A stretch of DNA of 60,280 nucleotides from Acidobacteriota bacterium (GCA_046725935.1 JBKOZO010000083.1:1-60280); one strand, 5' to 3'; counted from the first letter of the stretch, positions 7,422 to 55,251 are shown. The notes: generated by a model not told the origin, from the sequence alone. Made by a program: numbers and translations.

Positions 7422-8479
7422 TCGAGATCGACGTCGCGCTGCCGCTGGCGCGCTTCCCTCTGCGCATCGAGACCACGCTCTCCGGCCAGGCGGTGGCCGT
7501 GCTCGGGCCTTCGGGGGCGGGCAAGACCTCGCTTCTCGAATGCATCGCGGGTCTGCGCCGGAAGGCCTCGGGCCGCATCGTCGTGTCGGGGACGACGGTC
7601 ATGCACACAGCCCGGGGAACGTATCTGCCCCCCGAGCGGCGCCGCATCGGGTACGTCCCACAAGACGCGCTTCTCTTCCCGCATTTGACCGTCGCGGACA
7701 ACGTCCGGTTCGGGATGCGCGGCGACGCGGCCGGAGAGAGCCTTTACCGCGAATCCATCGCGATCCTCGAGATCGAGGACCTCACGCCGCGTTACCCCGC
7801 CACCCTTTCCGGAGGCGAGCGCCAGCGTGTCGCGCTCGCGCGGGCGATCGCGACGGAACCGCGGCTGCTGCTGCTCGACGAGCCTCTGGCGGCGGTGGAT
7901 CAGCACCTGAAGGGACGGATCCTGCCGTACCTTCTCCGGATCCGCGACGAGCTGCGCATTCCGTTCCTCTACGTCACGCACAACGCGGGCGAGGCGCGCA
8001 CGGTGGCGAAGGAAGCGATCGTCTTGCGCGATGGTGGCGTGGCCTTCGCGGGTTCTTCCGACGAGGCCCTCCGCTCGGTTTCGGCGCTGGATCCCGAGGC
8101 GCGGTTCGACAACGTCCTGGCCGGCGATCTCGACGCCGAGACCGCGCTCGGCGAAACGGCGTCGCTTCGCGTGGGGAGCGCGGTCTTCGCCGTCCCGGCG
8201 GAAGAAGCGGAAGCGCCCGGGCGCGCCGTCTTTGCCGTGGCGCCCGAGGACGTGCTCGTCTCGACGAAGCCGCTGTCCGGCGTGTCGGCGCGCAACGTGC
8301 GGCCGGGCGCCGTGATCTCGCGCGAAGTTTCGGGCGCGACCGCCTGGATCCGCATCGGCTCGGTGGGCCTGGAGTGGACCGCGCGACTCACGCTCGCGGC
8401 CGCAGACGAGCTCGCGCTCGAGCCCGGCTCGCCCGTCTGGATCGCCGTCAAGTCCTACGCATTTCGGCGGCTTCGTTAG
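7418..8479 (+). CDS. modC: Molybdate ABC transporter ATP-binding protein
   Basis: Walker A GPSGAGKT, LSGGERQR, LLLDEP, C-terminal TOBE (SARN...IAVKS); GTGA overlap with modB. Confidence 0.93.
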   Translation: MIEIDVALPLARFPLRIETTLSGQAVAVLGPSGAGKTSLLECIAGLRRKASGRIVVSGTTVMHTARGTYLPPERRRIGYVPQDALLFPHLTVADNVRFGMRGDAAGESLYRESIAILEIEDLTPRYPATLSGGERQRVALARAIATEPRLLLLDEPLAAVDQHLKGRILPYLLRIRDELRIPFLYVTHNAGEARTVAKEAIVLRDGGVAFAGSSDEALRSVSALDPEARFDNVLAGDLDAETALGETASLRVGSAVFAVPAEEAEAPGRAVFAVAPEDVLVSTKPLSGVSARNVRPGAVISREVSGATAWIRIGSVGLEWTARLTLAAADELALEPGSPVWIAVKSYAFRRLR

Positions 8480-14180: not shown

Positions 14181-14220
14181 CCCGCGGTGCGCCGCCGGGC
14201 GGCGGCGTATCATCGCGGCG

Positions 14221-14703
14221 GTGCTTTCACCGTTCGTCATCTGGTCATCCGCCCCGCGAATTCACGACTCCATCGTCCTCAGGATCACCGCCTCTGCCGT
14301 GATCGTCGCCTCCCTCGCCGCGGGGCTTGCGGCTCTCGGGCGCGATCTTCGAATCGCTTACCTGTACGCCGGCCAGAGCATCTTCTCGAGCGTTGACAGA
14401 AAGCAGATGGATGCGGTGCGTGCCTCCCTGCCCGCGAAGGCCCCGATTCTGCTCATCGCAAAGACGGCCAACGCGTGGCAGGCCTGGCTCTGGGAGCGCG
14501 GGCTTTACCCCGAGCACCTCGTGGTCGTGCGGTTCGAACCCTGGTCCGCGGACGAGATTCGCAAGGCCCGTGAGCGGTTTGGCTTCCGGCACGCCGTAAT
14601 CATCGGACCCGTCCCATTCGATCCGGGCTTTCGATGGACTCGCGACCTCGGCCCCATGGCGGGGGTTCCCGATCGCGTGGTCTTCGGCGAGCTCGCGCCT
14701 TGA
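14221..14703 (+). CDS. Hypothetical membrane-anchored protein
   Basis: Single N-terminal TM; stop overlaps the next start; start uncertain. Confidence 0.55.
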   Translation: MLSPFVIWSSAPRIHDSIVLRITASAVIVASLAAGLAALGRDLRIAYLYAGQSIFSSVDRKQMDAVRASLPAKAPILLIAKTANAWQAWLWERGLYPEHLVVVRFEPWSADEIRKARERFGFRHAVIIGPVPFDPGFRWTRDLGPMAGVPDRVVFGELAP

Positions 14704-16055
14704 GATTGCCGCTTCCGGAAATTCTCATCACGGCGCTGCTGGCCGCAGGTTTTGCGGCCGTCGGCGAGATCATCCTCCGTCGCCCTTCACGGAGCGCGGC
14801 CGCCGCCAACGAATCGATGCTCGTCGGAATGGGAGTCTGCGCTGCCGCCCTCTTTCCTTTGACCTTGATCCTTCCGCACCACGCCCTCGTGGCCGAGGCC
14901 GTGTTGCTGGCCGCGTGTCTGGGTTGGGCGGTCCTCCGTCGAATCGGGCGGCGCGAAGGAATCGACCGCACGGCACGGTTTCCGCTCGACCCGACCGCAC
15001 GCGGGATTCTCGCGGCCGTGGCCGTCGTGACGGCCGCCTTTGCCGCGCTGAACCTTCGCTACACCTACGCCTGGGACGGGTTCATGATCTGGGCGACGAA
15101 GGCACGTCTGCTTTCGCATGTGGGAAGTCTCAACCGCGAGTGGCTCTTACCCGGAGACCTCTACGGAATGCGTCACCTCGAGTACCCGCCGGTCGTTCCT
15201 CTCTACGAAGCCTTGTTGAGCCTCCTTCGCGGCTCTTTCGACTACGACAAGCTCAAACCCGTCTTCCTGGTCTTTTATCTTTCGCTGCTGATCGGGACGT
15301 ATGCCGCCGCCCGGGCTGAGCTCCCGGCTCGTCTGGCGGCCGCGGCCGACCTTCTGGTCTGCCTCCTTCCGGCCGTATCGACGCAGTATGCGACCGGAGG
15401 GTACGCGGACATGCCGCAGGCAGCCTTCGTCGCCGGCGTCGTGGCGGCGGGTATGGCGGGCCGTAGGGATTCGCTGCCCTGGTTGATCGGCGCGTTGACG
15501 ATGGTCAAGGCGGAAGGAGTGATTCTCGCCGCTCTCGCGTGCGGCGGTATTGCGCTCTTCTGGGTTCTCGAATCAGCGCACAACTTTGCTCGGCAAATAG
15601 CGGCCGCGGTCCGCGGCATTGCCTTGGTTGCGGCGTTCTTTCTGGTGCGCTTCGCATACGTGCGCTGGGTTGGCGCGCCGGAGTTCGTCTACCAGGGCGG
15701 CCTGGCCGACGCGCTGGCGCGGATTCCGCAGGCCGTACGCCTGTGCCTGATCCGGCTCGTCGACCCGCGGCAGTGGGGCCTGTTCTGGCCGGCGTTCGGC
15801 GCAGCCGCAGTGGTCCTGCTCGCCCGGGGTTCGAATCGGGAAAAAGCGGTTTCCGCGGCAACTGCGGCGGGCCTGGCTGTTTCGATTGCGCCGTTCCTCT
15901 TCACCACCTGGCCGCTCGAAGTCCATATCGAGCAGGCGTATTTCCGGCTGGCCGCGCAGCTGTCTCCCGCGGCTGCGGTCTCGATCGTTCTGGCTTATAC
16001 GCGGCTGAAGCACGCGTTCCCGGCGCGGTCGCCGCTGCCGTCATCCCCGAGCTAG
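14700..16055 (+). CDS. Polytopic GT-C-fold glycosyltransferase-like membrane protein
   Basis: ~11 TMs; AWDGFMIWATKA, HLEYPP, GYADMP and KAEG motifs typical of ArnT/PMT-like GT-C proteins. Confidence 0.72.
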   Translation: MRLPLPEILITALLAAGFAAVGEIILRRPSRSAAAANESMLVGMGVCAAALFPLTLILPHHALVAEAVLLAACLGWAVLRRIGRREGIDRTARFPLDPTARGILAAVAVVTAAFAALNLRYTYAWDGFMIWATKARLLSHVGSLNREWLLPGDLYGMRHLEYPPVVPLYEALLSLLRGSFDYDKLKPVFLVFYLSLLIGTYAAARAELPARLAAAADLLVCLLPAVSTQYATGGYADMPQAAFVAGVVAAGMAGRRDSLPWLIGALTMVKAEGVILAALACGGIALFWVLESAHNFARQIAAAVRGIALVAAFFLVRFAYVRWVGAPEFVYQGGLADALARIPQAVRLCLIRLVDPRQWGLFWPAFGAAAVVLLARGSNREKAVSAATAAGLAVSIAPFLFTTWPLEVHIEQAYFRLAAQLSPAAAVSIVLAYTRLKHAFPARSPLPSSPS

Positions 16056-43214: not shown

Positions 43215-43973
43215 TTAAGTCGGCGGCCCTGCCCCCGCAGCGGCCCGGTCGGCAAACCAAAGGAGCTCGCCGTCTCTGGGCTGGATCCGGCCCGCCGGGT
43301 ACTCGGCGGCGGTCTCGGGATTTCGCACCAAAGACAGGATGTCGGCCTTCTGCCCGCCCTCGACCAGAAACAAGACCGCTCTCGCCTCGGCGAACACCGG
43401 AAAGGTCATGGTGATGCGAAACGCCTCGAGCTTGTCGACCCAGGTCGCGACGACGAGCCGGTCCCGGATCTCGAGCGCGGTCGTTCCTGGAAAGAGCGAG
43501 GCCGTGTGGCCTTCGGGACCCAGTCCCAGGTAGACCAGATCGAAGCGCGGAATCTGCCCGAAGGGCGCCGCGAAAGTCTCGCGCAACTCGATTTCGTACC
43601 GGCCCGCCGCTTCGGCGGCTTCGGGAAGCTCGGAAAGGACCCGATGGACGTTGGCCTCGGGGATGGCGATGCGCGAAAGGAGGGCCTCCCGGACCATCCG
43701 ATAGTTGCTCTGCGGATCATCCGGAGGCACATGGCGCTCGTCGCCCCAGAAGAGATGCGTCCGTTCCCAGGGAACCGCCTTGCGATAGGGCTCGTCGGCC
43801 AGGAGAGTGTAGAGGCGTCGGGGCGTGCGTCCGCCGGAGAGTGCCACCGCGAACCGTCCGCGCGCGGCGACGGCCTCGGCGGCGCGGTGCGTGAAGTCCT
43901 CGGCGGCCGCGCGGGCGACCGCGTCCGGATCGGGAAACACGAGGAGGCGTCCCCTCCCCTGCGCGGCGCTCAC
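43215..43973 (-). CDS. pgl: 6-phosphogluconolactonase
   Basis: ALSGGRTP, FWGDERHVPPDDPQSN, LGLGPEGHTASLFP, RITMT. Confidence 0.95.
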   Translation of the reverse strand: MSAAQGRGRLLVFPDPDAVARAAAEDFTHRAAEAVAARGRFAVALSGGRTPRRLYTLLADEPYRKAVPWERTHLFWGDERHVPPDDPQSNYRMVREALLSRIAIPEANVHRVLSELPEAAEAAGRYEIELRETFAAPFGQIPRFDLVYLGLGPEGHTASLFPGTTALEIRDRLVVATWVDKLEAFRITMTFPVFAEARAVLFLVEGGQKADILSLVRNPETAAEYPAGRIQPRDGELLWFADRAAAGAGPPT

Positions 43974-44989
43974 GAGCGCGTCGGCGTCTTGGAACCCTGG
44001 AAGCGTCCCTTATCGACGTCGTGGAGGAACGGGATGAGGGCGTTGAAGTACGCCTCCTGGTCGTCCCACATCGCGAGATGGCTGCCGTTGTCGCAGATGA
44101 CGACGCGCGAGTTGGGAATCAGGCGTCCCATCTTCCGGATGTCCTCCGGATCCATCTCGTCGTAGTGTGCGCCGATCAAGAGCGTCGGGACCATGATCTT
44201 CGCGAGATCGTTCCAGCGGTCCCAGTCCTTGAACGTGCCGGTCACGACGAACTCGTTGGGCCCCTGCATCGTGCCGTAGACCTGAGGGTTGAAGTGCTTG
44301 AAGGCGCGGTCGACCGGGTCGGGCCACGGGTCCAGCCGGCAGACGTGCCGCTTGTAGACCTGCTCCATCATCGCTTGCTTATACTCGGGCGCGTCGTAAG
44401 AGCCGGTCGCCTCGTACTTCTCGAGCGTGGCGAGGACGTCCTTCGGCAGGGCCGCGCGCAGCTTCGCGATGTACGACATGTAGGACGGGATCGACGCCGT
44501 CATGCTCGAGAGCACCAGGCCCTTCAAGTGCTTCTGGTACTTCAGGGCGTACTCGATCGCGAGCATGCTGCCCCACGACTGGCCGTAGAGGATGAAGTTC
44601 TCCAGGGCCAGGCCCGTGCGCACCTGCTCGACCTCCTCGCGGAAGCGGTCAATCTTCCAGAGGCTCGGATCGTCGGGCTGGTCCGAATAGAAAGAGCCGA
44701 GCTGGTCGTAGTACCAGAACTCGACTCCGGCCTGCGGCAGGAAATCTTCGAAGCACTCGAAGTACTCGTGCGTGAACCCGGGGCCGCCGTGCAGGGTCAG
44801 CATCTTGATCGACCCGGATCCGAGCTTCTTCGTCCAGACCTTGTACTTCCCATCGACCGGGATCAACCGGATGCCCGCGGTCCTGACCTCTTTGGACGGG
44901 GTTCCGGGCGCCAGGGCTCGGCCCACGCGCGCATGCAGGTAAGAGGCGGCACCGAGAGCGAAGAGGGAGCGTCGATCGATCGTCGGCAT
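43970..44989 (-). CDS. Proline iminopeptidase-family alpha/beta hydrolase, probable Tat substrate
   Basis: LHGGPG, YDQLG, GQSWG nucleophile elbow, GSHL; N-terminal DRRSLF twin-arginine-like motif. Confidence 0.9.
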   Translation of the reverse strand: MPTIDRRSLFALGAASYLHARVGRALAPGTPSKEVRTAGIRLIPVDGKYKVWTKKLGSGSIKMLTLHGGPGFTHEYFECFEDFLPQAGVEFWYYDQLGSFYSDQPDDPSLWKIDRFREEVEQVRTGLALENFILYGQSWGSMLAIEYALKYQKHLKGLVLSSMTASIPSYMSYIAKLRAALPKDVLATLEKYEATGSYDAPEYKQAMMEQVYKRHVCRLDPWPDPVDRAFKHFNPQVYGTMQGPNEFVVTGTFKDWDRWNDLAKIMVPTLLIGAHYDEMDPEDIRKMGRLIPNSRVVICDNGSHLAMWDDQEAYFNALIPFLHDVDKGRFQGSKTPTRS

Positions 44990-45057
44990 GGCGGGGATCA
45001 TATCGAGGAGGCGCCGCCTCCACGCCCTCACGGCTTTTGGCATAATGCCCCGGTTCC

Positions 45058-45393
45058 ATGGAACTTCAAACTCATGAAGACGGCTCCGTCACGGTACTGA
45101 CCGTGACGGGCGACCTCGTGATCGGCGACGCGGAGGCCACGTTCAAGAAGACCGTGACGCGGCTGCTGGAGGAGGGCCACACCCGTCTGCTCGTGGATCT
45201 TTCGGGAGTCGGCTTCCTCGACAGCTCGGGGCTCGGGGCTCTGGTGCGGGCGCTGACGCAATCGCAGAAGGAGGGGGGCCAGACCAAGCTCCTTCGCGCC
45301 GGCCCTCAGATCCGCAAGCTCCTTCAGATGACCAAGCTCGACTCGGTGTTCGAGATCCACGACGACATGGAGGCCGCCGTCTCCAGCTTCTGA
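45058..45393 (+). CDS. STAS-domain anti-sigma-factor antagonist
   Basis: VDLSGVGFLDSSGLGALV (phosphorylatable Ser), LLQMTKLDSVFEI. Confidence 0.93.
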   Translation: MELQTHEDGSVTVLTVTGDLVIGDAEATFKKTVTRLLEEGHTRLLVDLSGVGFLDSSGLGALVRALTQSQKEGGQTKLLRAGPQIRKLLQMTKLDSVFEIHDDMEAAVSSF

Positions 45394-45445
45394 GGGGTAA
45401 GACTCATCCGGCATCCGGCTCAAGTCGTGTCCACCGAGGAGGCGC

Positions 45446-47905
45446 ATGACGGACGAACCTGAAGAACCGGAAGACGAAGGGGCCGAAGAGCCGGAGGAGT
45501 CCGAGGCCGCCGACGCGGGGACCCAGGACGAAGTCTCGGCTCTGGCCGAGCTGGCGCTCTGCGAAAACCTCTCGCAGACGTCGGGATGGGCGGCTCGCTG
45601 GAGCGCCACGATGTCCGGCGCGGACGCCGCGCTGCTGTGGGCTCCCGACACGGTCCATCCAATTTTTCTCTGCATCGCGGGGTCGGGTCCGGGGGTCGAC
45701 AAGCTCCTGCGGCGATCGGCGCCCCGCGAGACCGGAATCGTGCATGACCTGGTCCGAGACCGGCAGCCCATCGTCCTTGCGGGAGAAGAGCTCACGACCT
45801 CCGATCCCTTCGTGCGAGGGATTCCGCCGACGCTCCGCGCGTGTCTCGCGGTACCGCTCCACGCGGAGGGCCTGGTGGTGGGTCTTCTCGCCCTCTACTT
45901 CAGCCACATGCCCGACGCCGAAGAGGCACTGGCGCGCCTGGAACGGTTCCTCGAGCAGGCGGCGCCGGCTCTGGGCCGGGCCCTGCGGTCCGAGCGAAAG
46001 ACGGTCGGCATGCTCCACGCGATCGAGCGGCTGACCAATCTGTACGACCTTTCGAAAGCGTTCGGCTCGACGATCGACACCGTGGAGCTCTCGGACCTGA
46101 TCGTGCGCAAGGCCGCCGACTTCGTCACGGCCGAATCGGCGTCTCTGTGGATGCTCGACAGCGCCGAGGGCGAGGTCACACTCGCCGCCACGGCCGTCAA
46201 CGAGAACTACGACGTCACTCCGGCGCCCGAAGCGGTCGGCGCGGCGATCGTCGGCGACGTCATCGCCGACCAGTCCACGATGCGGCGCAACCGCATCCCG
46301 GCGGGAGACCCGGCCGCCGAGGAGGATTCGGGTTACCGGATCCAGTCGGTCCTGGCGGCCGCCCTCGTCGAAGACGAGGTGTCGGTCGGCGCGCTCGTCC
46401 TGGCCAACAAGCGCGGCCGCCATCCCGAGTTCTCGGCCGAAGACGAGGAGCTCCTGCAGGACGTCGCCCGCCAGGCCGTCCGCGCGCTGCGCACCGCCCG
46501 GCAGCACGAGGCGGAGAAGAAGGTCCAGGAGCTCGACGCGCTCCTCGCGGTCTCCCGGGAGATCACCGCCACGCTCGACCTCGACAAGGTCATGCAGACG
46601 ATCGTCAACGCGACGTCCGCGCTGATCCACTACGACCGGTGCGGGATCGCCATCCAGGAGAAGGGGAGGCTGCGCCTGGGGGCGGTCTCCGGCTCGACCG
46701 AGGTGGACCGCAAAAACCCGGACACGCGGCGGATGGAGGAGCTCCTCCAGTGGGTCTACCTCTCCGGGACCGACACCACCGTGACCCAGACCGACGACGG
46801 ACAGATCACAGCCGACCGTCCGGAGACCGAGGAGAAATTCCGCGCGATCTTCCAGGAGACGGGGCTGAGGTCTTTCCACGGCGTCCTCCTGAAGGACGAG
46901 GAAGGCAAGCTCGGGGCTCTCGGGTTCGAGAGCAAGGAACCGCTGGTGTTCGACGAGGAGACCCGCGACCTCCTCTCGATCCTGGTCAACCAGGCCACGG
47001 TCGCGGTCCGCAACGCGCAGCTCTACCAGCAGGTGCCGCTGGCCGGCTTCTGGAAGCCGTTGCTCGAGAAGCGGCGCAAGCTCTCGGCGATTCCTCTCTC
47101 GCGCCGCCGCCGCTGGGCGATCGGCGCCGCGGTGGCCGCCCTGATCCTGTTCGTCGCGCCCTGGCCCCTGCGCATCGCCGGACCCGCCCGGGTCCTGCCG
47201 GGCCGACGCGCCGCCGTCACGTCCATGGTGGACGGCGTCGTCGGCACGGTGCTGCGGCGCGAGGGCGACCGCGTCGAAGCCGGCGACGTCATCGCGACGC
47301 TGAAGGACGAGAGCTACCAGGCGGCCCTGGCGCAGGCCCGGTCGAGCCTGGCCATGGCGGAGAGCGACGTGGCGCTGGCGCGCCAGAACGCCGACGCCGG
47401 CGCGGTATTCGACGCCGAGGCCCGGCGGCGCGAGGCGCGCGCCCGCATCGCGCTCGAGGAGGACCGGCTTTCCCGCACACGGCTCACCGCTCCGGCCTCG
47501 GGCGTGATCGTGACTCCTCGAATCGAAGAGCGGGTCGGCCAGCTTCTGCCCAGGGGTATGGAGCTCTGCGTGGTGGCCGACGTGCGCACCGTCCGCGCCG
47601 AGGTGGCCGTGCCCGAGTCCGACGCCGGCCTGGTCCGGCCCGGCCAGAAGGTCGCGCTGAAGTTCAATCCCTATCCCGGCACACTCTTCCGCGGAGAGGT
47701 CGCGCGGGTCGCGCCCCGGATCCGGGAGGAAGGCGATCAGCGTTTTCTGATCGCCGAGGTCGCTGTTCCGAATACCGACGGAAGGCTGAAGACCGGCATG
47801 CTCGGCAACGGCAAGGTCTCCGTCGGGACGCGCCGTGTCGTCACCGCGCTGTTTCGCAAGCCCCTCCGGTATCTCTGGAACAAGATCTGGCCCGCGCTCC
47901 CGTGA
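45446..47905 (+). CDS. Triple-GAF domain protein fused to a HlyD-type membrane fusion domain
   Basis: GAGGAGG RBS; three GAF-like segments (CLAVPL...VVGLL; LYDLSKAF...LVLANK...FSAEDEELL; LLAVSREITATLDLDKV...NAQLY); TM; lipoyl halves (DGVV..V..REGDRVEAGD / LTAPASGVI), beta barrel, LKTGM. Confidence 0.85.
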   Translation: MTDEPEEPEDEGAEEPEESEAADAGTQDEVSALAELALCENLSQTSGWAARWSATMSGADAALLWAPDTVHPIFLCIAGSGPGVDKLLRRSAPRETGIVHDLVRDRQPIVLAGEELTTSDPFVRGIPPTLRACLAVPLHAEGLVVGLLALYFSHMPDAEEALARLERFLEQAAPALGRALRSERKTVGMLHAIERLTNLYDLSKAFGSTIDTVELSDLIVRKAADFVTAESASLWMLDSAEGEVTLAATAVNENYDVTPAPEAVGAAIVGDVIADQSTMRRNRIPAGDPAAEEDSGYRIQSVLAAALVEDEVSVGALVLANKRGRHPEFSAEDEELLQDVARQAVRALRTARQHEAEKKVQELDALLAVSREITATLDLDKVMQTIVNATSALIHYDRCGIAIQEKGRLRLGAVSGSTEVDRKNPDTRRMEELLQWVYLSGTDTTVTQTDDGQITADRPETEEKFRAIFQETGLRSFHGVLLKDEEGKLGALGFESKEPLVFDEETRDLLSILVNQATVAVRNAQLYQQVPLAGFWKPLLEKRRKLSAIPLSRRRRWAIGAAVAALILFVAPWPLRIAGPARVLPGRRAAVTSMVDGVVGTVLRREGDRVEAGDVIATLKDESYQAALAQARSSLAMAESDVALARQNADAGAVFDAEARRREARARIALEEDRLSRTRLTAPASGVIVTPRIEERVGQLLPRGMELCVVADVRTVRAEVAVPESDAGLVRPGQKVALKFNPYPGTLFRGEVARVAPRIREEGDQRFLIAEVAVPNTDGRLKTGMLGNGKVSVGTRRVVTALFRKPLRYLWNKIWPALP

Positions 47906-50094
47906 GCTCCTCCCGCCCCGGCCGTCTGCTCGCCGCCACTCGCCTCGGGGAAGGCGCCGCGGCCCTCGCGGCCCGGCACGGGGTCGCGAGCGACAAGCCG
48001 GCGATCCGCTCCGACGCCGTGATCCGGCGCGTGGTGCAGCTGGGCGAGGTCAACTGGGTCGTCAAGAATCCCGAGACGACGAAGTACTACAACTTCGACG
48101 ACGGGGAGTGGGGGCTCTGCCAGCTCTTCGACGGGACGCGCACGCTGGCGCAGATCCAGGCCGACTACCAGGCGATGTTTCCCCGCGAGAAAGTCGAGAT
48201 GTCCCTCGTGCGCGAGTACGAGGAGATGCTGCGTGAGATGGGCCTGATCGAGCAGTCGGCGGCGGAGCGGAACCTCAAGCTGCTGGCCAACGCGCGGACC
48301 GCCCGCCAGCGCGCCGCCGAGGAGAAGGCCGAAGGCTTCAACCCGTTCTTCCTGCTCTTCAACGTGCTCGACCCCAACCGATTCCTCGACCGGACGGTGA
48401 AGTACGTCCGCTGGATCTGGACGCCGCCCGTCGTCGCGGCGTCGCTGGTCTTCGCCGCCTGGGCGTTCGGCGTGATCCTCGTCCACTGGGACACGGTCTG
48501 GGGCGGCACGATGGAGCTCTACGCGCTGACGTCGAAGCCGCTCATCGACGTCCTGCAGTTCTTCTTCATCCTGACCTTCATCGGCTGCATCCACGAGTTC
48601 GCGCACGCCTACGTCGTCAAAATCTACGGCGGCGACGTGCACGACATCGGGATCGCGCTCCTCTACTTCACGCCCGCCTTCTACTGCGACACCACGGACT
48701 CCGTCCTCTTCCCGAACAAGTGGCACCGGCTCTGGGTCACGACGGCCGGGATCTACGTCGAAGCGTTCATGTGCTCGGTGGCGACGCTCGTCTGGGTCGT
48801 CTCCTACCCCGATACGCTCGTCCACGAGATCGCCTTCAAGACGATGCTCTTCACGGGTGTCTCGACGGTCTTCTTCAACATCAATCCCTTGATCAAGATC
48901 GACGGCTACTACGCGCTCTCCAGCGTGCTCGAGATCCCGGACCTGCGCGAGGAGTCGTTCCGCTACATCGGGGCGTGCTTCCAGAAGTACGTCCTGCGGC
49001 TTCCCGTCGAGGTGCCGCAGGTCTCACGCCGCAAGCGGCGGATCTACTGGATCTTCGGGTCTCTGGCTCTGGCCTGGGTCGCCGTCGTCATGCGCTTCAT
49101 CGGCGGCCTCTTCTACAACCTCTACAACCACTTCTTCCCCAACTGGGCGGTCGTGCTCCTCCTGATCACGCTGTACCGGCTGTTTCGCAAGCGCGTCCGA
49201 CTCGTCACGCGCACGACCCATCTCTTCTATCTCGACAAGAAGGAGCTGCTCATGTCTTCCCGCGTTCGCGCGGCGCTCCTCGGCGCCCTCGCCGTGGTCG
49301 TCCTGCTCGTCTTCGTCCCGTGGAGCCGGCGCACCCTTCGCTCCCCCGCCGTTCTCCGACCCATGGCCACGATTCGCCTGGAGGCGCCGGAGGACGCGGT
49401 CGTCACCCGCACGCTCGCCCAGGAGGGAGACCGCGTGAAGGCCGGAGATCCGGTCTTCCAGCTCCTCAGCGCGGCGGCATCCGAAGACACCAAGCGGCTC
49501 ACCTCCGAGCGCGAGCGCGCGGCGCGGGAAGCCAGCCTCGCCCGGCAGGCCGCCGAGCCCGCGCGCGTCTTCGCCTCCGAGGCCCGCGGCACCTCCCTCG
49601 AAGCGGCCTTGAAGAGCGGACGCGCGCGCGAGGAGCGCTTGCTGGTGAAGAGCCCGTCCTCGGGCCGTCTCCTGACCCCGTACGTGCGCGACCTCGAGGG
49701 ACGCTCGGTCCCGGCGGGAACCCTGCTGGCCGAAGTCGGCGACGACCGGCAGATGGTCGCCGACCTGACCGTCTCGGAGCGGTTGCTCGACGATCTCGTG
49801 CCGAACGCGCCGGTCACCGCTCTCTTTCGCGGGCATCCGCGGCCGGTCCATGGCACGATCGTGGCCGTCTCACCGGCCGCCCTCGCGCAGCCCAAGACTG
49901 CGGCGGCGAATGCGGATCCGTCGGCGCCCACCGAGCAGCCCGAGCGCTTCGTGGCCGTGGCCGTCTTCGACAACGCCGACGGGAGCCTCTTCGCCGGCAT
50001 GAACGGCTACGCCAAGATCTACGGGAGGCACGCGTCCTACGCGGCGCGCGTGTGGCGGGTCCTCAAGCGGTGGGTGCAGTCGGTAGCCTGGTAG
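47902..50094 (+). CDS. PqqD/RRE-like domain + M50 (site-2) intramembrane zinc protease + HlyD-type domain fusion
   Basis: N-terminal VVKNPETTKYYNF...QLFDGTRTL (RRE-like); IHEFAH, AG, FNINPLIKIDGYY (M50 motifs); C-terminal lipoyl halves (QEGDRVKAGD / VKSPSSG); GTGA overlap with upstream gene. Confidence 0.85.
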   Translation: MSSSRPGRLLAATRLGEGAAALAARHGVASDKPAIRSDAVIRRVVQLGEVNWVVKNPETTKYYNFDDGEWGLCQLFDGTRTLAQIQADYQAMFPREKVEMSLVREYEEMLREMGLIEQSAAERNLKLLANARTARQRAAEEKAEGFNPFFLLFNVLDPNRFLDRTVKYVRWIWTPPVVAASLVFAAWAFGVILVHWDTVWGGTMELYALTSKPLIDVLQFFFILTFIGCIHEFAHAYVVKIYGGDVHDIGIALLYFTPAFYCDTTDSVLFPNKWHRLWVTTAGIYVEAFMCSVATLVWVVSYPDTLVHEIAFKTMLFTGVSTVFFNINPLIKIDGYYALSSVLEIPDLREESFRYIGACFQKYVLRLPVEVPQVSRRKRRIYWIFGSLALAWVAVVMRFIGGLFYNLYNHFFPNWAVVLLLITLYRLFRKRVRLVTRTTHLFYLDKKELLMSSRVRAALLGALAVVVLLVFVPWSRRTLRSPAVLRPMATIRLEAPEDAVVTRTLAQEGDRVKAGDPVFQLLSAAASEDTKRLTSERERAAREASLARQAAEPARVFASEARGTSLEAALKSGRAREERLLVKSPSSGRLLTPYVRDLEGRSVPAGTLLAEVGDDRQMVADLTVSERLLDDLVPNAPVTALFRGHPRPVHGTIVAVSPAALAQPKTAAANADPSAPTEQPERFVAVAVFDNADGSLFAGMNGYAKIYGRHASYAARVWRVLKRWVQSVAW

Positions 50095-50100
50095 CTCCCG

Positions 50101-50134
50101 AAAAATGAAACGCCCCGCCGAAGCGGGGCGTTTC
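50101..50134. terminator. Terminator hairpin between convergent exporter and repeat-peptide genes
   Basis: GAAACGCCCCGC-CGAA-GCGGGGCGTTTC perfect 12-bp stem; A5 at 50101-50105 is a T-tract for the minus strand. Confidence 0.85.
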
Positions 50135-50155
50135 GTGGTTCCCGGTTGACTGGAC

Positions 50156-50572
50156 TCAGAGGCCGGTCGACTTGCCCGACGCGCGTCCGGCGATCGACTT
50201 GCCAGCGGCGCGACCCGCGATCGACTTGCCAGCGGCCCGACCCGCGATCGACTTGCCCGACGCGCGTCCCGCGATCGACTTGCCCGCCGCCCGACCCGCG
50301 ACCGACTTGCCCGCTGCGCGTCCCGCGATCGACTTGCCCGCCGCCCGACCCGCGACCGACTTGCCCGCCGCGCGTCCCGCGATCGACTTGCCCGCCGCCC
50401 GACCCGCGACCGACTTGCCCGCCGCGCGCGCCGAAACCGCCTTGGTGGTCGGCGAAAGCGCCGGGTTGCCGGCGAAGGTCTCGACACGAATCTCGGGCAT
50501 GTCCTTGCCCGTGGCCTCGCGGATCTTTTCCTTCTGGGCGTCCGTCAGCTTGATCTTGACTTCGTTTGCCAT
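50156..50572 (-). CDS. Leader + ten-fold 9-aa repeat basic protein (candidate exported/RiPP-like precursor)
   Basis: GAGGAGGG RBS, ATG, own sigma-54 promoter and terminator; 48-aa leader MANEVKIKLTDAQKEKIREATGK... then 10 x RA[AS]GKS[VIT]AG-type units; repeat variation is mostly synonymous in this frame. Confidence 0.85.
   Translation of the reverse strand: MANEVKIKLTDAQKEKIREATGKDMPEIRVETFAGNPALSPTTKAVSARAAGKSVAGRAAGKSIAGRAAGKSVAGRAAGKSIAGRAAGKSVAGRAAGKSIAGRASGKSIAGRAAGKSIAGRAAGKSIAGRASGKSTGL
50159..50428. repeat. Ten tandem 27-bp coding repeats
   Basis: Unit ~CGATCGACTTGCCCGCCGC[GC]CG[AT]CCCG, with a 54-bp higher-order alternation (V/I) in the first six units. Confidence 0.95.
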
Positions 50573-50604
50573 TGTTTCTTCCCTCCTCTGTCCCTCTTAG
50601 TCAA

Positions 50605-50621
50605 GGCAAGCCTCAGGCCAG
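50605..50621 (-). promoter_or_regulatory. Sigma-54 (-24/-12) promoter of the repeat-peptide gene
   Basis: Minus strand CTGGCCTGAGGCTTGCC, exact GG-N10-GC spacing, ~32 bp upstream of the ATG. Confidence 0.75.
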
Positions 50622-50705
50622 GTTTTCGAATCTCTCCGGCGAACGACAAGCGCCTCTGTCTTCAGTAATTTACGGAATCGCGTCTCGCTCGAGGCTCAAG
50701 ATTAG

Positions 50706-50743
50706 GGTGAAACTTTTCGCACCGTTGGTTGAGTTTTTCATCC
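50706..50743. promoter_or_regulatory. Tandem imperfect palindromes, candidate enhancer (UAS) for the adjacent sigma-54 activator
   Basis: GGTGAAACTTTTCGCACC and GGTTGAGTTTTTCATCC, ~85-120 bp upstream of the -24 element. Confidence 0.5.
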
Positions 50744-50748
50744 ACGGA

Positions 50749-52128
50749 TCAGAGGCCGTACTTCCGGCAGAGGTACTTGATCTGATTGGCGTCGAGGCCG
50801 AGCTTTCGCGCCGCCTCTGCCTTCTTGCCGCCCGCAACGGCGATCGCCTCGGACAGTAGCCGCCGCTCGTAGTCCTCGACGGCCTGGGCGAAGCCCTTCG
50901 CCGGGTGGACGGCCTTCGCCGGCCCCGAGCGGTCGCGCAACGCCCTCGGCAGGTCCTCCTCGCCCACTTCCTCCCCCTCGGCGAAGACGACCAGCGTCTC
51001 GATCGCGTGCTGGAGCTCGCGTACGTTGCCCCGCCACGGGTGCGCGGTCAGGCGCGCCAGCGCCGCTTCCGAGATCCGCGACGGGCCGCGGCCGTGCCGC
51101 GCGCGAAGCTCCGCGAGGAAGTGCCGGGCCAGCAGCGCGACGTCGTCGCCGCGCTCACGGAGAGGAGGCATGCGGATCGGGATCGTGTTGATCCGATAGA
51201 ACAGATCCTCGCGGAAACTTCCATCCGCGACGCGGGCCTCCAGGTCTTCGTTGGTGGCCGAGATGAGGCGAAAGTCCACCGGGATCGCCCGGCGCCCGCC
51301 CACTCTCTCGACCTGCCGGCTCTCGATCGCGCGCAGCAGCTTGGCCTGCGCCGCGGCCGAGAGCGTTCCGATCTCGTCCAGAAAGAGAGTCCCGCCGTGA
51401 GCCAGCTCGAAGCGCCCCGGCCGGGACGCGATGGCTCCCGTGAAGGCGCCCTTCTCGTGGCCGAAGAGCTCCGCCTCGACGAGAGTCTCGGGCATCGCCG
51501 CGACGTTGACGGCGACGAAAGGCCGCTCGCGCCGCGCGCTCCGCTCGTGGATGGTCCGGGCCACGAGGTCCTTTCCCGAGCCGCTCTCGCCCTGGAGCAA
51601 CACGGTCGCGTCGCTCGCGGCGACCCGGTCGATCTCGGACGTGAGCCGCCGGAACGCCGGGCTCTCGCCGATCAGGCGCTCGGAGGCCGCCGGCTCGGTG
51701 ACCGCCCGGCGCAGCTCGCGATTTTCCGCCACGAGCCGCCGGCGCTCGAGCGCGCGATTGAGGATCACGAGCAGCTCCGCCGTGTCGATCGGCTTCTGGA
51801 AGAAGTCGAAGGCGCCGAGGGCGATCGCCTTCAGCGCGTCCGACCTCTCCCCTTCCCCCGACATCATCACGACCGTGGCCTCGGGGTCCCGGCGGCGCGC
51901 GTGCCGAAGAAGGTCGAGCCCTTCCTGGACCTGGCCCGACGGCGGCAGTCGCATGTCGAAGAGGAAGAGATCCGGCTCCGACTCGCAGAGCGCCTTCCCG
52001 TGCGTGGCGTCGCGCGCCGAGGACACCGAGAACTTGCCCTTCAGGGCCCAGGTCAGCTGCTCGAGAAGGACCTCGTCGTCCTCGACGATGACGATGCGGC
52101 CGAGACTGCCTGCGGCCTGTGCGTCCAC
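50749..52128 (-). CDS. Sigma-54-dependent response regulator, PrsR (PEP-CTERM-box)-like
   Basis: Receiver IVEDD..LEQLTWAL..DMRLPP..EG..ALKAIALGAFDFFQKPID resembles PrsR; AAA+ GESGSGK, ELFGHEKGAFTGA, WRGNVREL; Fis-type HTH. Confidence 0.92.
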   Translation of the reverse strand: MDAQAAGSLGRIVIVEDDEVLLEQLTWALKGKFSVSSARDATHGKALCESEPDLFLFDMRLPPSGQVQEGLDLLRHARRRDPEATVVMMSGEGERSDALKAIALGAFDFFQKPIDTAELLVILNRALERRRLVAENRELRRAVTEPAASERLIGESPAFRRLTSEIDRVAASDATVLLQGESGSGKDLVARTIHERSARRERPFVAVNVAAMPETLVEAELFGHEKGAFTGAIASRPGRFELAHGGTLFLDEIGTLSAAAQAKLLRAIESRQVERVGGRRAIPVDFRLISATNEDLEARVADGSFREDLFYRINTIPIRMPPLRERGDDVALLARHFLAELRARHGRGPSRISEAALARLTAHPWRGNVRELQHAIETLVVFAEGEEVGEEDLPRALRDRSGPAKAVHPAKGFAQAVEDYERRLLSEAIAVAGGKKAEAARKLGLDANQIKYLCRKYGL

Positions 52129-52133
52129 GCGCC

Positions 52134-52853
52134 TCAGGCTCCGCCCGGCGCGGCGGGAATCCCCGGAAACGACAGCCGCACGAGCGTTCCGCCGCCGGGT
52201 TGGCTCAAGATCCGGATCGTTCCGCGGTGAAGCCGGGCGATCTGGTTCGCGGTCGTGAGGCCCAGTCCGACGCCCTGGGGCTTGGTCGTCTCGAAAGGCT
52301 GGAAGAGCCGGTCGCGCAGGAACTCGGGCGTCATGCCGGCCCCATTGTCGATGATTTCGATGACGGCGCGGGGCCGGCGGGAGCTGCCCGCCGAGAAGCT
52401 CCGCACGAGCACGCGGCCTTCCGGCGCGGCGGCTTCGCACGCGTTGTCGACCAGGCTCGCGACCGCGTCGGCGAGGTAGTACGGGTCCGCCCAGATTCGG
52501 GGCGCATCCCCGAGCGCCAGCGACACGCTCGGCCCGGCATCCGCGCCCCTTCGCCCCGAACGGCGGCCGGGGCGCTCGGCGACCTCCCGGAGCAGGTCGT
52601 TGACGTCGAGAGCCACCTTGATGAGAACCGCGTCCTCGCGCTCGACGAAACGTCCGGCGATTCCTTCGAGTCGCTCGACGCAGGAGGCCAGGAGGTCGCG
52701 GACGGTCTTCCGAAAGTCGGGGTCCTCCCAGTGCTCGTCGAGGTTGGACAGCAGCAGCCGGAGCCGGAACGACATGTTCTTGATGTCGTGCACCAGCACA
52801 CGGTCGCGGGCCGAGCGAAGGCGCGCGGAGGTGCGGGAAGGGGTCGGCGGCAT
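52134..52853 (-). CDS. Soluble sensor-less histidine kinase, PrsK-like catalytic core
   Basis: VHDIKN...LLLSN...DPDF (PrsK-like H-box), LVDNACEA, IDNGAGM, LFQPFETTK, GVGLGL; no TM or GAF input domain. Confidence 0.85.
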   Translation of the reverse strand: MPPTPSRTSARLRSARDRVLVHDIKNMSFRLRLLLSNLDEHWEDPDFRKTVRDLLASCVERLEGIAGRFVEREDAVLIKVALDVNDLLREVAERPGRRSGRRGADAGPSVSLALGDAPRIWADPYYLADAVASLVDNACEAAAPEGRVLVRSFSAGSSRRPRAVIEIIDNGAGMTPEFLRDRLFQPFETTKPQGVGLGLTTANQIARLHRGTIRILSQPGGGTLVRLSFPGIPAAPGGA

Positions 52854-52871
52854 ACCTGCCGTGGATTCTCT

Positions 52872-53621
52872 CTACTTCGAAGGGGATTTGGGAAACCGCA
52901 CCTGGACGGCGATGCCGGGCCGCAGCACGGTGCGCGCGGGCTCCCGCTTGACCCGGACCACGACCTGGAAGGTTCCGCTGGCCGCGTCCACCGTCGGGCT
53001 GATGAACTGAACGTCTCCGGTGGTCTTCACGTCGGGGAAGCGCTCGGCGACGATGTCCACGCGGTCGCCGACTTTGACGCGAAGCAGCTCTTCCTCGGGA
53101 AGGTAGATCCGCGCGAGCAGGGGCTCGACCGCCGTGATCTTGAAGAGGGGCTCGGGCTTGTCTTCGGTGACCTTTTGGCCGATCCGGGCGTACTTCTCCG
53201 TCACGACGCCGGCGAAGGGCGCCCGGATCACGGTGTAGTCCCGCAGCGTCTTGGCCTTCTCGAAACGGGCCGTGGCCACGGCGTACTGCGCCTTTTTCTC
53301 GTCGAGGTCGGCCGCGCTCGTGATCTTGGACGCGGCCAGCGACTCCGCGCGGGCGTATTCGGCCTTCTTCAGCTCCATGTCCTCTTTGGCCTCGCGCACG
53401 TCGGCGTCGGCCTCGCGGGGATCGAGCGCCGCGAGCTCCTGTCCCTGGGTCACCACCGCGCCGCGGTCCACGGCGATCGACGCGATGACGCCCGAGATCC
53501 TCGACGCGACCGCGACGTCCTGGTCGACCATCAGGTGGGACGCGTAGACGCGGTCCTGCGCGGCGGCCGGGCCGGAGCCGGGGCCGAGCAGCAGAAGGCC
53601 CGAAAACAGGACTCTTTTCAC
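52872..53621 (-). CDS. Periplasmic adaptor (membrane fusion protein), RND/HlyD type
   Basis: Signal-like N-terminus; SRISGVI..VDRGAVV..GQ, IRAPFAGVV, FISPTVDAASGTFQV, LRPG. GTG start inferred. Confidence 0.9.
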   Translation of the reverse strand: MKRVLFSGLLLLGPGSGPAAAQDRVYASHLMVDQDVAVASRISGVIASIAVDRGAVVTQGQELAALDPREADADVREAKEDMELKKAEYARAESLAASKITSAADLDEKKAQYAVATARFEKAKTLRDYTVIRAPFAGVVTEKYARIGQKVTEDKPEPLFKITAVEPLLARIYLPEEELLRVKVGDRVDIVAERFPDVKTTGDVQFISPTVDAASGTFQVVVRVKREPARTVLRPGIAVQVRFPKSPSK

Positions 53622-53664
53622 GGTGTCGGACGAACGCCGGAATGCTATCGTTTCCTTAGGTTCC

Positions 53665-54009
53665 ATGTCGATCTCGCTGGCCAGCGAAGCGCCCTCCGTC
53701 GAGCAGAAGGGCCTGCGCGCCAATTTCAGCTGGGCCATGTCCGAGCCCTGGGACGAGCGGCGCCTCGCCGCGTTCCTGATGACCAAGCACCGGCGCAGCG
53801 ACTCCGACTGGACGCGGCGGCCCTCGCCGTTCTTCGCCTCGCTCGGCCAGTCCACGGTGGAATGCTCCGTGCCGGTCGCGCGCCCGGACGCCCTCGCGGA
53901 GCTCGCCGCGATCCTGACCGCCGAGCTTTCCGGAATCCTGACGGGCGCGAGCCAGATCTATGACCAGATGCTCGCCGGGCAGGACTGGAAGACGGTCTCC
54001 CCTCCCTGA
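53665..54009 (+). CDS. Hypothetical protein
   Basis: ORF with host-like codon usage, divergent from the adaptor gene; no recognised motif. Confidence 0.5.
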   Translation: MSISLASEAPSVEQKGLRANFSWAMSEPWDERRLAAFLMTKHRRSDSDWTRRPSPFFASLGQSTVECSVPVARPDALAELAAILTAELSGILTGASQIYDQMLAGQDWKTVSPP

Positions 54010-54126
54010 CGGGGCCTCCAGACGCCTCATTTCTCTAGGCTCAAAACCCGCTTGGGGCGGTATACGCTTTGCGCCGCCCTACCGGCGACCCCCGTCCGGA
54101 GGGCGACCACGGGCTAGGAGGTGGCC

Positions 54127-55251
54127 ATGATCTCGGTTCCCTCGCTTCGCCTGAACCAGTTCGGGGTTCGCTTTTACGAAGCCCTGTTGTCGGGCGCCGA
54201 CCTCCAGTCCCTCGTCGGATTCGAGGTCCTCTCCTTCGGCCCCCACAGCGAGACCACCCGCGGCAAGCACAAGCCGGCGGGACGGGTGAACTGGGACCTC
54301 CTGGAAAAGAAGATCGCGGCATCCGAGCACGCCTTTCAGCGGCCGATCATTAAGAAGAAGATCGACGAGCTGGTGGCCTACTACCTGCAGCAGGCCGACG
54401 CCGGTTCGCTGCCCGCGATCCCCGGCAGCGTGCTCCTGGTCTCGGAAAAGAGGCTGGAGTTCGCCCCCTCCGGGGGGCGCGCCGACGCGGGCTCGTTGAA
54501 GCTCCCCGAGGAGTCCGGCATCCTCCGCGCCCTCGACGGCCAGCACCGGCTCCTGGCCTTGCACCAAATCGCCGAGAAGCACAATCTTCGCGACTTCCAG
54601 GTCCCGGCCGTGGTGTTCGACAACCTGACACCGGACCAGGTCGTCGAGCTCTTCGTCACGATCAACAGCAAGCACACGAAGCTGAACCCCTCGCACCTGA
54701 TCTCGCTGGCGGGCCGCCGCCTCTACCGCGACGATAACCTCGCCGCGGCCCACGACGTCATCCGCACGCTCAACGAAGACGAGAGCTCTCCGCTGAAGGG
54801 CTCGATCAAGGTGCTCGGCATCGGCAAGGGTTCGGTCACGCAGGCGTCGCTCGCCGACGAGCTGCGCGACGTCTTCGCGGCCATCGACACGGCCGGGGGC
54901 CGTGTCGCCAAGGAATTCCGCGAAAATGCGCGCCGCTTCTTCCTCAACTACTTCAAGGCGGCGGCGCGGGCCTTCCCGACGGCGTTCGCCGGCCGCAAGT
55001 ACTCGATCAAGAGCTCGACCTCGCTGCGGGCGTTCATCCGCATCGTGCCGTACGTCATCGCGATGGTCCGCAAGCGGGGCGGCGACGTCTGGTCGGCGGG
55101 AGAGCTCGACGCCGCGCTGCGGCCCTGGGCGGAGGCGATCGGCGACCGCCGCTTCGAGACCGAGACGGTCTGGAAGGAAAAGCTCACGGGCGGGACCCGT
55201 TCCGCCGTCGAGATTCTGGCGCGGGAGCTGCGCCAGGGCCTCAACGCCTGA
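54127..55251 (+). CDS. DGQHR-domain protein (DndB/ParB-like)
   Basis: AGGAGG RBS; FQRP, LDGQHRL and LFVTINSK motifs. Confidence 0.9.
   Translation: MISVPSLRLNQFGVRFYEALLSGADLQSLVGFEVLSFGPHSETTRGKHKPAGRVNWDLLEKKIAASEHAFQRPIIKKKIDELVAYYLQQADAGSLPAIPGSVLLVSEKRLEFAPSGGRADAGSLKLPEESGILRALDGQHRLLALHQIAEKHNLRDFQVPAVVFDNLTPDQVVELFVTINSKHTKLNPSHLISLAGRRLYRDDNLAAAHDVIRTLNEDESSPLKGSIKVLGIGKGSVTQASLADELRDVFAAIDTAGGRVAKEFRENARRFFLNYFKAAARAFPTAFAGRKYSIKSSTSLRAFIRIVPYVIAMVRKRGGDVWSAGELDAALRPWAEAIGDRRFETETVWKEKLTGGTRSAVEILARELRQGLNA

Follow-up and report, generated by a model that had tools for sequence, protein, structure and literature searches.

Type I secretion systems built on peptidase-containing ATP-binding cassette (ABC) transporters (PCATs) handle small peptides with an N-terminal leader through a protease joined to the export machine, an HlyD adaptor and a TolC partner, while membrane M50 proteases encoded beside small precursors serve as leader peptidases of peptides made by the ribosome and modified after translation (RiPPs), among them the daptide protease, EpeP/YydH and TglG/TmoG. 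In the part of PMC10885120 available to us the cuts described are single, TglG/TmoG removing a C-terminal residue and EpeP cleaving its precursor, and for EpeP both cleavage and export of an epipeptide are presumed. The locus considered here occupies positions 45058-53855 of a 60,280-nucleotide stretch from an Acidobacteriota bacterium (GCA_046725935.1 JBKOZO010000083.1:1-60280; this whole stretch is called the window). It encodes three HlyD-type proteins, one of them a fusion with a site-2-type M50 protease and a domain resembling the RiPP recognition element (RRE), together with a small leader-and-repeat protein. We read it, with a little more confidence than doubt, as a conserved leader-dependent processing-and-export module that does without an ABC, resistance-nodulation-division (RND) or major facilitator superfamily (MFS) pump.

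The module shares with type I/PCAT systems the N-terminal leader on a small peptide, the joining of a protease to the export machine and the HlyD adaptors, and in its relatives a TolC partner as well. It differs from them in having no ABC transporter, C39 cysteine peptidase or ATPase, in employing as its protease an M50 zinc enzyme fused to an adaptor, in possessing three distinct adaptors instead of one, and in what would be leader recognition by an RRE domain. No ABC_tran match lies within 38 kb of the module or among its conserved neighbours, and the uncleaved C-terminal signal of type I substrates is not seen in the peptide, whose conserved part is N-terminal and whose C-terminus is variable. 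The conserved leader, variable core and RRE of RiPP systems are all present; no post-translational modification enzyme is found in the conserved core. With the M50 leader peptidases the module has in common a membrane M50 protease beside a small precursor, and its match to the daptide protease includes the N-terminal domain (fusion residues 50-428). In contrast to these systems, however, its score stays under the daptide cut-off, its core has no modifying enzyme, and it adds a fused HlyD domain, two extra adaptors and tandem-repeat, nearly Cys-free cores. The C-terminus of the fusion has the adaptor fold of tripartite efflux pumps (MexAB-OprM, MacAB-TolC, AcrAB-TolC), whereas the module has no inner-membrane pump and its cargo would be a ribosomal peptide. 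O-island 28 of enterohaemorrhagic Escherichia coli was considered as a relative and set aside, being a canonical ABC type I system, unrelated to the module, as the available part of PMC12758282 presents it. In the full-text literature, mostly outside subscription journals and with supplements excluded, no description was found of the M50-HlyD fusion, of the leader family or of the LEPR-XLL/DUF3467 operons treated below. So far as found, the module is undescribed in print, and its sequence suggests that it is of the leader-cleaving tripartite export kind.

Three genes run along the plus strand, for a STAS-domain protein of the anti-sigma-antagonist type (45058-45393, 111 aa), for an adaptor with three GAF domains, a transmembrane segment and an HlyD part (adaptor 1; 45446-47905, 819 aa), and for the RRE-M50-HlyD fusion (adaptor 2; 47902-50094, 730 aa), whose start overlaps the adaptor 1 stop by 4 nt. 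Converging on them, the minus strand carries the genes for the pre-protein with leader and repeats (50156-50572, 138 aa), an NtrC-family response regulator/sigma-54 activator (50749-52128), a short histidine kinase (52134-52853, 239 aa) and a small HlyD/membrane fusion protein (MFP; adaptor 3, 52872-53855). A G+C-rich terminator-like hairpin (50107-50134; stem of 12 pairs, 9 of them G-C, loop of 4, tail ATTTTT) sits between the convergent fusion and peptide genes, with the T run after it on the minus strand. Every element named in a sequence-only reading that preceded this work was recovered by Pfam/NCBIfam matches and by reading of the open reading frames (ORFs), in the order and on the strands given there. 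The end coordinate proposed in that reading, 54009, is unjustified, since the longest adaptor 3 ORF stops at 53855 (its start is uncertain: 53666, 53738 or 53855).

The fusion comprises an RRE-like domain (residues ~30-125; 47989-48276), an M50 membrane core (~150-470) and an HlyD domain (~475-730; HlyD_3, 47 bits). M50 proteases are defined by HExxH and NxxPxxxxDG zinc/catalytic motifs placed in membrane helices. In the fusion, HExxH occupies residues 231-235 (48592-48606) in the context IHEFAHAY, and the second motif reads NPLIKIDGY. Residues H231, E232, H235, N328, P329, L330, D334, G335 and Y336 are invariant in a 62-sequence alignment and fall in helical segments of the AlphaFold (AF2) model; the catalytic motifs are intact, which supports the sequence-only reading on this point. 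The daptide metalloprotease model NF041824 matches residues 50-428 with 174.3 bits (E = 4e-51).

In the AF2 model of the fusion (predicted local distance difference test, pLDDT, 81.9) the N-domain has three strands and several helices, the membrane core is helical, and the C-terminal part is a lipoyl/beta-barrel adaptor bearing a hairpin of two helices. As a whole it matches the structures of MexA, MacA, AcrA and ZneB (E ~1e-14) through the C-terminal adaptor part. A separate model of the N-domain (pLDDT 85.9) gave three strands and then helices, of which four were called, and its six best PDB matches were TbiB1 and TfuB1, lasso-peptide RREs solved with their leaders (template modelling score 0.67-0.74 on the target, root-mean-square deviation 2.8-3.7 Å, E 2e-3 to 2e-2), the next being the RRE of the sactipeptide enzyme CteB. 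The sequence profile of the domain agrees weakly (TbiB1, E = 0.01; PqqD, E = 0.12). On its predicted structure, then, the N-domain has the RRE (PqqD-like) fold that had been proposed for it. Co-folding of leader residues 1-48 (137 alignment rows) and RRE-domain residues 25-135 (62 rows), run without controls, scored 0.01 and speaks neither for nor against binding.

A fusion homologue (E<=1e-20) is found in 55 of 401 Acidobacteriota genomes and in 41 of 227 genera, a tally in which the genome of the window itself and two unpublished ones, G024 and G152, are counted. The whole arrangement is kept in three named relatives. Up to ~20 kb around 40 fusion homologues were compared together with these three named loci, giving 43 loci, four of which (L048, L074, L076 and L080) were dropped for having less than 1.5 kb downstream of the fusion; 39 were thus usable. 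A GAF-HlyD partner lies beside the fusion in 31/39, a convergent sigma-54 regulator within 2.5 kb in 30/39 and a small adaptor in 30/39, while tblastn relatives of the kinase and of the STAS protein occur in 18/39 and 23/39, respectively. These counts are lower bounds, because the tblastn threshold for GAF-HlyD missed the partner that L072 has according to Pfam. Across the loci the fusion is 27-76% identical to that of the window, and the small adaptor follows the kinase or, in a deeper clade, stands between adaptors 1 and 2. Synteny maintained in dozens of genomes indicates that the arrangement is more than chance. The sequence-only reading had stated beforehand that it should be given up if homologous exporter pairs did not occur together with this leader family; among the 39 loci, the exporter pair, the sigma-54 activator and the small leader-bearing ORF do co-occur.

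Clustering of the longest ORFs, which is noisy in high-GC DNA and was used only to seek further conserved genes, revealed no further widely shared gene, and no ABC, RND, TolC, modifying enzyme or exosortase gene in the core. The absence of ABC, RND and tailoring genes claimed from the window alone therefore extends to the conserved core of the 43 loci. The alpha/beta hydrolase gene next to the module (43970-45043) is present in 3/43 loci, all of them close relatives. In two loci tblastn recovers the regulator, the kinase and the small adaptor in several pieces that are out of frame (L001, 13750-15110; L002, 14315-16020), which look like assembly frameshifts rather than decay, given that the sister genomes are intact.

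The start of the pre-protein reads MANEVKIKLTDAQKEKIREATGKDMPEIRVETFAGNPALSP and is followed by AGRAAGKS[IV] units, the end reads GRASGKSTGL, and no membrane segment is present. The leader spans residues 1 to ~45 (50438-50572) and the tail consists of ~10 tandem 9-aa units, which at the DNA level form a 27-nt-period repeat of 9.7 copies at 50167-50428 (Tandem Repeats Finder, TRF). Pfam and NCBIfam hold neither a match nor a model for the 138-aa peptide, and a protein atlas search with it gave no usable match. Starting from the window's leader, jackhmmer retrieved 20 ORFs in 19 loci (E 1e-25 to 1e-6), and in these 19 loci the leader-bearing ORFs always lie between fusion and regulator. The leader follows the pattern V.I.LT..Q...I...TG.....I.VE, with 7 invariant columns in 18 sequences (L9, T10, Q13 and G22 are among the invariant residues), and the cores are non-alignable. 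Tail units differ among loci (GARASGKSI, KAP[LM]RAGT, AMRAQK, GKKGL, GGRTP, PAKRVS, ASKSAL, ERANPLSVGIEA), even within the window's genus: L044 keeps the window's unit in more numerous copies, and L047 has AMRAQK in its place. The deeper clade bears a second leader type at the same position, M.IQKKSLI...KK., with repeats such as SNSPL, AARPA and GGGMA, and a few loci have short ORFs without repeats.

In most syntenic loci the strongest tandem DNA repeat lies 60-450 nt beyond the fusion stop, with periods that are all multiples of 3. A tandem repeat of period divisible by 3 no more than 600 nt past that stop was found in 22/39 loci; the units measure 15-36 nt, some TRF calls being multiples of up to 90 nt. 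By these automatic criteria the repeat is present in 21/30 loci with both partners, as compared with 1/9 of the others. Four soil/rhizosphere DNA runs yielded short contig pieces of low depth, none of them across the window's repeat, and no RNA run containing 49800-51000 was found.

When the leader profile was searched against 1.84 billion representative proteins, at least 538 clusters were obtained at E<=1e-3, of which 113 reach E<=1e-10; nearly all measure 45-260 aa and begin with the leader at residue 1. Tail statistics were computed on 139 members, that is, the 150 listed minus 11 long or multi-stretch proteins. At least three tandem copies are present in the tails of 73/139 members, against 2/139 shuffled tails. 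Tails abound in Ala, Arg, Ser and Lys, contain 0.3% Cys, and have a net positive charge in 109 members and a net negative one in 22. Given that the tail evolves fast while the leader is conserved, the small protein fits cargo better than it fits a regulator. One locus, L003, has two tandem precursor genes (12994-13275 and 13531-13932), each with its own sigma-54 element, and the acidic repeat units of the two differ, TAKDL/GAQDMSI in one and AEDLSAKDTSIQ in the other.

The expression of the small gene would be tied to the regulator beside it. The sigma-54 consensus has GG at -24 and GC at -12, and sequence reading finds such an element, TGGCCTGAGGCTTGC (50606-50620, minus strand), 33 nt before the peptide ATG, with a GGAGG-like ribosome site in between. 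With at least 8 of 10 positions required to match and GG and GC fixed, a -24/-12 element lies 29-67 nt upstream of 25/29 peptide genes, of both leader types, over a background of 312 sites in the 1.70 Mb scanned, or 0.037 per 200 nt. The earlier description of the peptide as sigma-54-driven is supported to the extent that the peptide genes carry promoter elements of this type.

The activator gene, 177 nt from the peptide gene and probably starting at the GTG at 52128, encodes receiver, AAA+ and HTH_8 domains (Response_reg 65.8 bits, Sigma54_activat 232.7, HTH_8 28.6). The kinase has the H-box HDIKN and an HATPase_c domain (72.2 bits). PrsR and PrsK are the best NCBIfam names for the two, and the label PrsK/PrsR-like had been applied to them in the sequence-only reading; it does not hold, since the activator scores 440.7 bits against TIGR02915, under the cut-off of 502.6, and the kinase 136.2 bits against TIGR02916, whose cut-off is 300, matching only profile positions 482-679 and lacking the membrane part of PrsK.

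The two remaining adaptors bring the HlyD-family membrane fusion proteins at the locus to three. Adaptor 1 matches GAF over three stretches (107 bits), HlyD_D23 (78 bits), HlyD_3 and TIGR01730 (107.8 bits, above the cut-off of 94.9); it has an acidic N-terminus and a hydrophobic span at about residues 553-575, between its GAF and HlyD parts; its GAF domains are cytoplasmic and its HlyD/MFP domain is periplasmic. Adaptor 3 exceeds the same TIGR01730 cut-off with 152.8 bits, matches HlyD_D23 (77.5 bits) and begins with a hydrophobic, signal-peptide-like stretch. The STAS protein (PF01740, 72.1 bits; TIGR00377, 73.9 bits) is likely the partner-switching input of the module. In L049 an FHA-GAF-SpoIIE (PP2C) phosphatase is encoded between the kinase and the small adaptor (13669-15321), ORFs of five further loci cluster with it, and in this phosphatase the STAS protein has its natural counterpart for partner switching.

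Taken together, these parts suggest the following sequence of events. The short kinase would phosphorylate the NtrC-type regulator, which would activate the sigma-54 promoter of the small gene; the leader of the 138-aa pre-protein would dock on the RRE domain of the fusion; the site-2-type zinc protease would cut the leader off at the inner membrane; and the repeat polypeptide would exit via a three-adaptor periplasmic conduit docked on a channel of the TolC type whose gene lies at another place in the genome. Gating of the machine may fall to the STAS protein together with adaptor 1's cytoplasmic GAF domains. EpeP, with its presumed double role, offers a partial precedent. Gene content, conservation, promoters, folds and motifs are observed or modelled directly, while binding, cleavage and export are what we infer from the parts, as are the energy source and the role of the repeat product outside the cell. 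The adaptor hairpins imply an outer-membrane factor, and the source genome contains 15 TolC-domain (OEP) matches, all on other contigs.

Several results weigh against this reading. No TolC-family match is found on this contig, and no energy source is encoded at the locus, the genome having a single SecA and the module no nearby ABC gene, while some relatives carry a dedicated SecA-like ATPase. Given the presence of that ATPase in relatives and its absence here, the acidobacterial module may be incomplete or work differently. On the fusion, the NF041824 score of 174.3 bits lies under that model's cut-off of 300, and PF02163 (Peptidase M50) reaches 21.6 bits, under its cut-off of 27.2. No sensor or membrane segment was seen in the 239-aa kinase. 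No conserved cleavage site could be defined, [RK]A occurring in just 41/73 repeat units. Finally, 9-10 of the 30 syntenic loci have neither leader nor repeat by the automatic tests, some of them having short non-repeat ORFs. The module had also been called self-contained, which is doubtful: its outer-membrane factor is unlinked here, whereas TolC, in some cases with the SecA-like protein, is encoded beside the fusion in relatives (L082 and proteobacterial plasmids).

Four other explanations were weighed. The same machine could cut its substrate at every repeat, releasing ~10 copies of an 8-9-residue peptide, either a species-specific signal or a cationic antimicrobial, in the manner of pro-hormones with repeats or of multi-core precursors among RiPPs; we regard this as unlikely, if worth keeping in view. 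In its favour, the repeat units have only 4-20 aa, are almost the same throughout one gene and vary from genome to genome, and three or more copies occur in 73/139 members against 2/139 shuffled tails. In addition, a short motif recurs in some members, separated by variable spacers (RKAPF..., ERANP...), single-core members end in one short tail after a similar motif, and the two-component system could, as we infer, close an autoinduction loop. The kinase has no extracellular sensor, however, and [RK]A, in 41/73 units, does not amount to a family-wide cleavage motif. The M50 RiPP proteases TglG/TmoG and EpeP make a single cut, according to the available part of PMC10885120. Moreover, homologous machines adjoin giant proteins that cannot be multi-core precursors. 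Less probable still is that the locus is a signalling device, the small protein serving in the cytoplasm as a substrate of regulated intramembrane proteolysis or as a decoy for it, and the output of the circuit something other than peptide secretion. Site-2 proteases classically act in signalling, no export energy source is encoded, and the locus is well supplied with regulatory parts: three GAF domains, STAS, kinase and regulator, joined in relatives by the FHA-GAF-SpoIIE phosphatase. Against this, three periplasmic adaptors with hairpins of the TolC-docking type are hard to explain without a conduit, which makes a purely regulatory role of the protease less likely; TolC adjoins in relatives, the peptide has no membrane segment, and a fast-evolving tail on a conserved leader fits cargo better.

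The names PrsR and PrsK would point to a surface-protein system of the PEP-CTERM/exosortase type run by that pair, an interpretation we consider very improbable. It is contradicted by the cut-offs (440.7 against 502.6 bits and 136.2 against 300 bits, the kinase covering no more of the PrsK model than its final 200 positions). Besides, the peptide's end, GRASGKSTGL, has no PEP motif, membrane helix or basic tail, and no exosortase is found among the conserved neighbours. As for chance neighbours and a spurious ORF laid over a non-coding tandem repeat, high-GC DNA is indeed open in many frames and repeats are open in several. This explanation is nonetheless refuted, and retains hardly any probability, given the conservation of the leader as protein across loci (jackhmmer E 1e-25 to 1e-6), the 538 database clusters with the leader at residue 1, repeat periods that are all multiples of 3, and sigma-54 elements and a ribosome site at a fixed distance from the start.

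The leader-dependent export reading gains a wider frame from homologues outside the Acidobacteriota. In the protein atlas, the fusion falls among clusters of ~700-aa M50 proteins, with or without PqqD and with or without an adaptor part, whose commonest phyla are Acidobacteriota, Planctomycetota and Pseudomonadota. A tblastn search of plasmids returned 79 records, including 18 from Escherichia and 8 from Citrobacter, with 25-28% identity over ~80% of the protein and E down to 2e-43. Five plasmid contexts were examined (Pseudosulfitobacter, Methylosinus, Thalassospira, Azospirillum and an E. coli IncF plasmid). In 5/5 the fusion, accompanied by a large and a small HlyD adaptor, lies behind a gene of 13-39 kb that encodes a giant surface protein of the LEPR-XLL, LamG-like, Ig-like or autotransporter-repeat kind. 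TolC is encoded in the operon in 4/5, DUF3467 in 2/5, and a SecA-like ATPase (by Pfam; 638-674 aa, annotated 'prepilin peptidase') in 2/5; the large adaptor of Pseudosulfitobacter carries a GAF domain.

These operons, which are annotated in RefSeq, have the same three-adaptor set with the same fusion as the acidobacterial loci. They differ in their cargo, of 4,000-13,000 aa as compared with a 60-200-aa peptide here, in encoding TolC and sometimes the SecA-like ATPase, and in showing no sigma-54 pair in any of the five contexts read. The specificity for a repeat peptide assumed in the sequence-only reading is accordingly not sustained, as homologous machines adjoin giant surface proteins and the peptides of some relatives have no repeats. 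Two acidobacterial loci resemble the proteobacterial layout: L072 has GAF-HlyD beside the fusion and a SecA-like gene, and L082 has a TolC-family gene directly after the fusion. In L082 (7306-13690) the M50-HlyD gene comes after a gene for a methyltransferase-TauD dioxygenase fusion and a 317-aa ORF, and this locus may be a version with a modifying enzyme. The SecA-like proteins of L084 (10026-12050), L088 (10174-12090) and L072 (11006-12997) are truncated, with SecA_DEAD scores of 331-347 bits. On the E. coli IncFIA/FIB plasmid NZ_CP081687.1 (record 44829-64580; L085/L087), a 13.4-kb gene for an Ig-like giant is followed by TolC, two HlyD and M50-HlyD genes, and no ABC transporter is annotated among the genes of this operon.

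A kinship between the small peptides and the LEPR-XLL giants was suggested by the likeness, by eye, of 'EALEGRDAP', 'VEDRANP' and 'LEPRKAP' to the giants' 'EALEPRFLL'. It failed its controls and was kept as a lead only: NF012209 (LEPR-XLL, 24 positions) has no match in six family peptides at E<=10, compared with 32.4 bits in the Pseudosulfitobacter giant, and on the five giant N-termini the leader hidden Markov model performs no better than on 400 shuffles of each.

The shared adaptor trio raises a broader proposal, which we put forward tentatively and with more doubt than conviction: that it is the core of a distinct, widespread envelope-spanning secretion system with RRE leader recognition, a site-2 protease replacing the ABC transporter at the inner membrane, and TolC docking, for cargo ranging from 50-aa peptides to 13,000-aa adhesin-like giants. 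Under this proposal the leader-plus-repeat proteins of Acidobacteriota would make up a large family of products that the system secretes and that evolve fast. If true, there would be an export route needing no ABC, RND or MFS pump, a function for the protease-adaptor fusion of Acidobacteriota, Planctomycetota and Pseudomonadota, including E. coli and Citrobacter plasmids, and a tie between RiPP-style RRE leader recognition and protein secretion in general. The change of repeat unit between genera under a constant leader suggests species-specific extracellular products, be they signals, coats or antimicrobials. The analysis also delimits a large family of small proteins in soil bacteria, under sigma-54 control and without annotation, and flags a SecA-like ATPase carried under the RefSeq name "prepilin peptidase" (two records checked). 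Since cultured Alphaproteobacteria have the homologous operon, the system is directly testable.

The window belongs to contig C83 of a 4.5-Mb, 90%-complete genome whose closest named relatives are uncultured Acidobacteriota/Thermoanaerobaculia metagenome-assembled genomes. Its DNA is G+C-rich (0.64-0.77), and the fraction of 0.766 at positions 1-2000 is well over that of the remaining window (0.64-0.71). The absence of a pump and of TolC from the window, as claimed earlier, holds in part: no RND or TolC match occurs on the contig, but one ABC ATPase domain does, at 7481-7891 (plus strand, 111 bits). This domain, the sole one on the contig, lies within a 783-aa open frame 38 kb off the module. 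On the other side, a gene for a DndB/GmrSD_N-like protein (PF14072, 53 bits) adjoins the module at 54121-55251 (plus strand). Its product shares 98% identity with the L001 counterpart and 85-95% with those of the other relatives compared, whereas flanking genes show 53-80%, which makes it unusually conserved relative to its neighbourhood.

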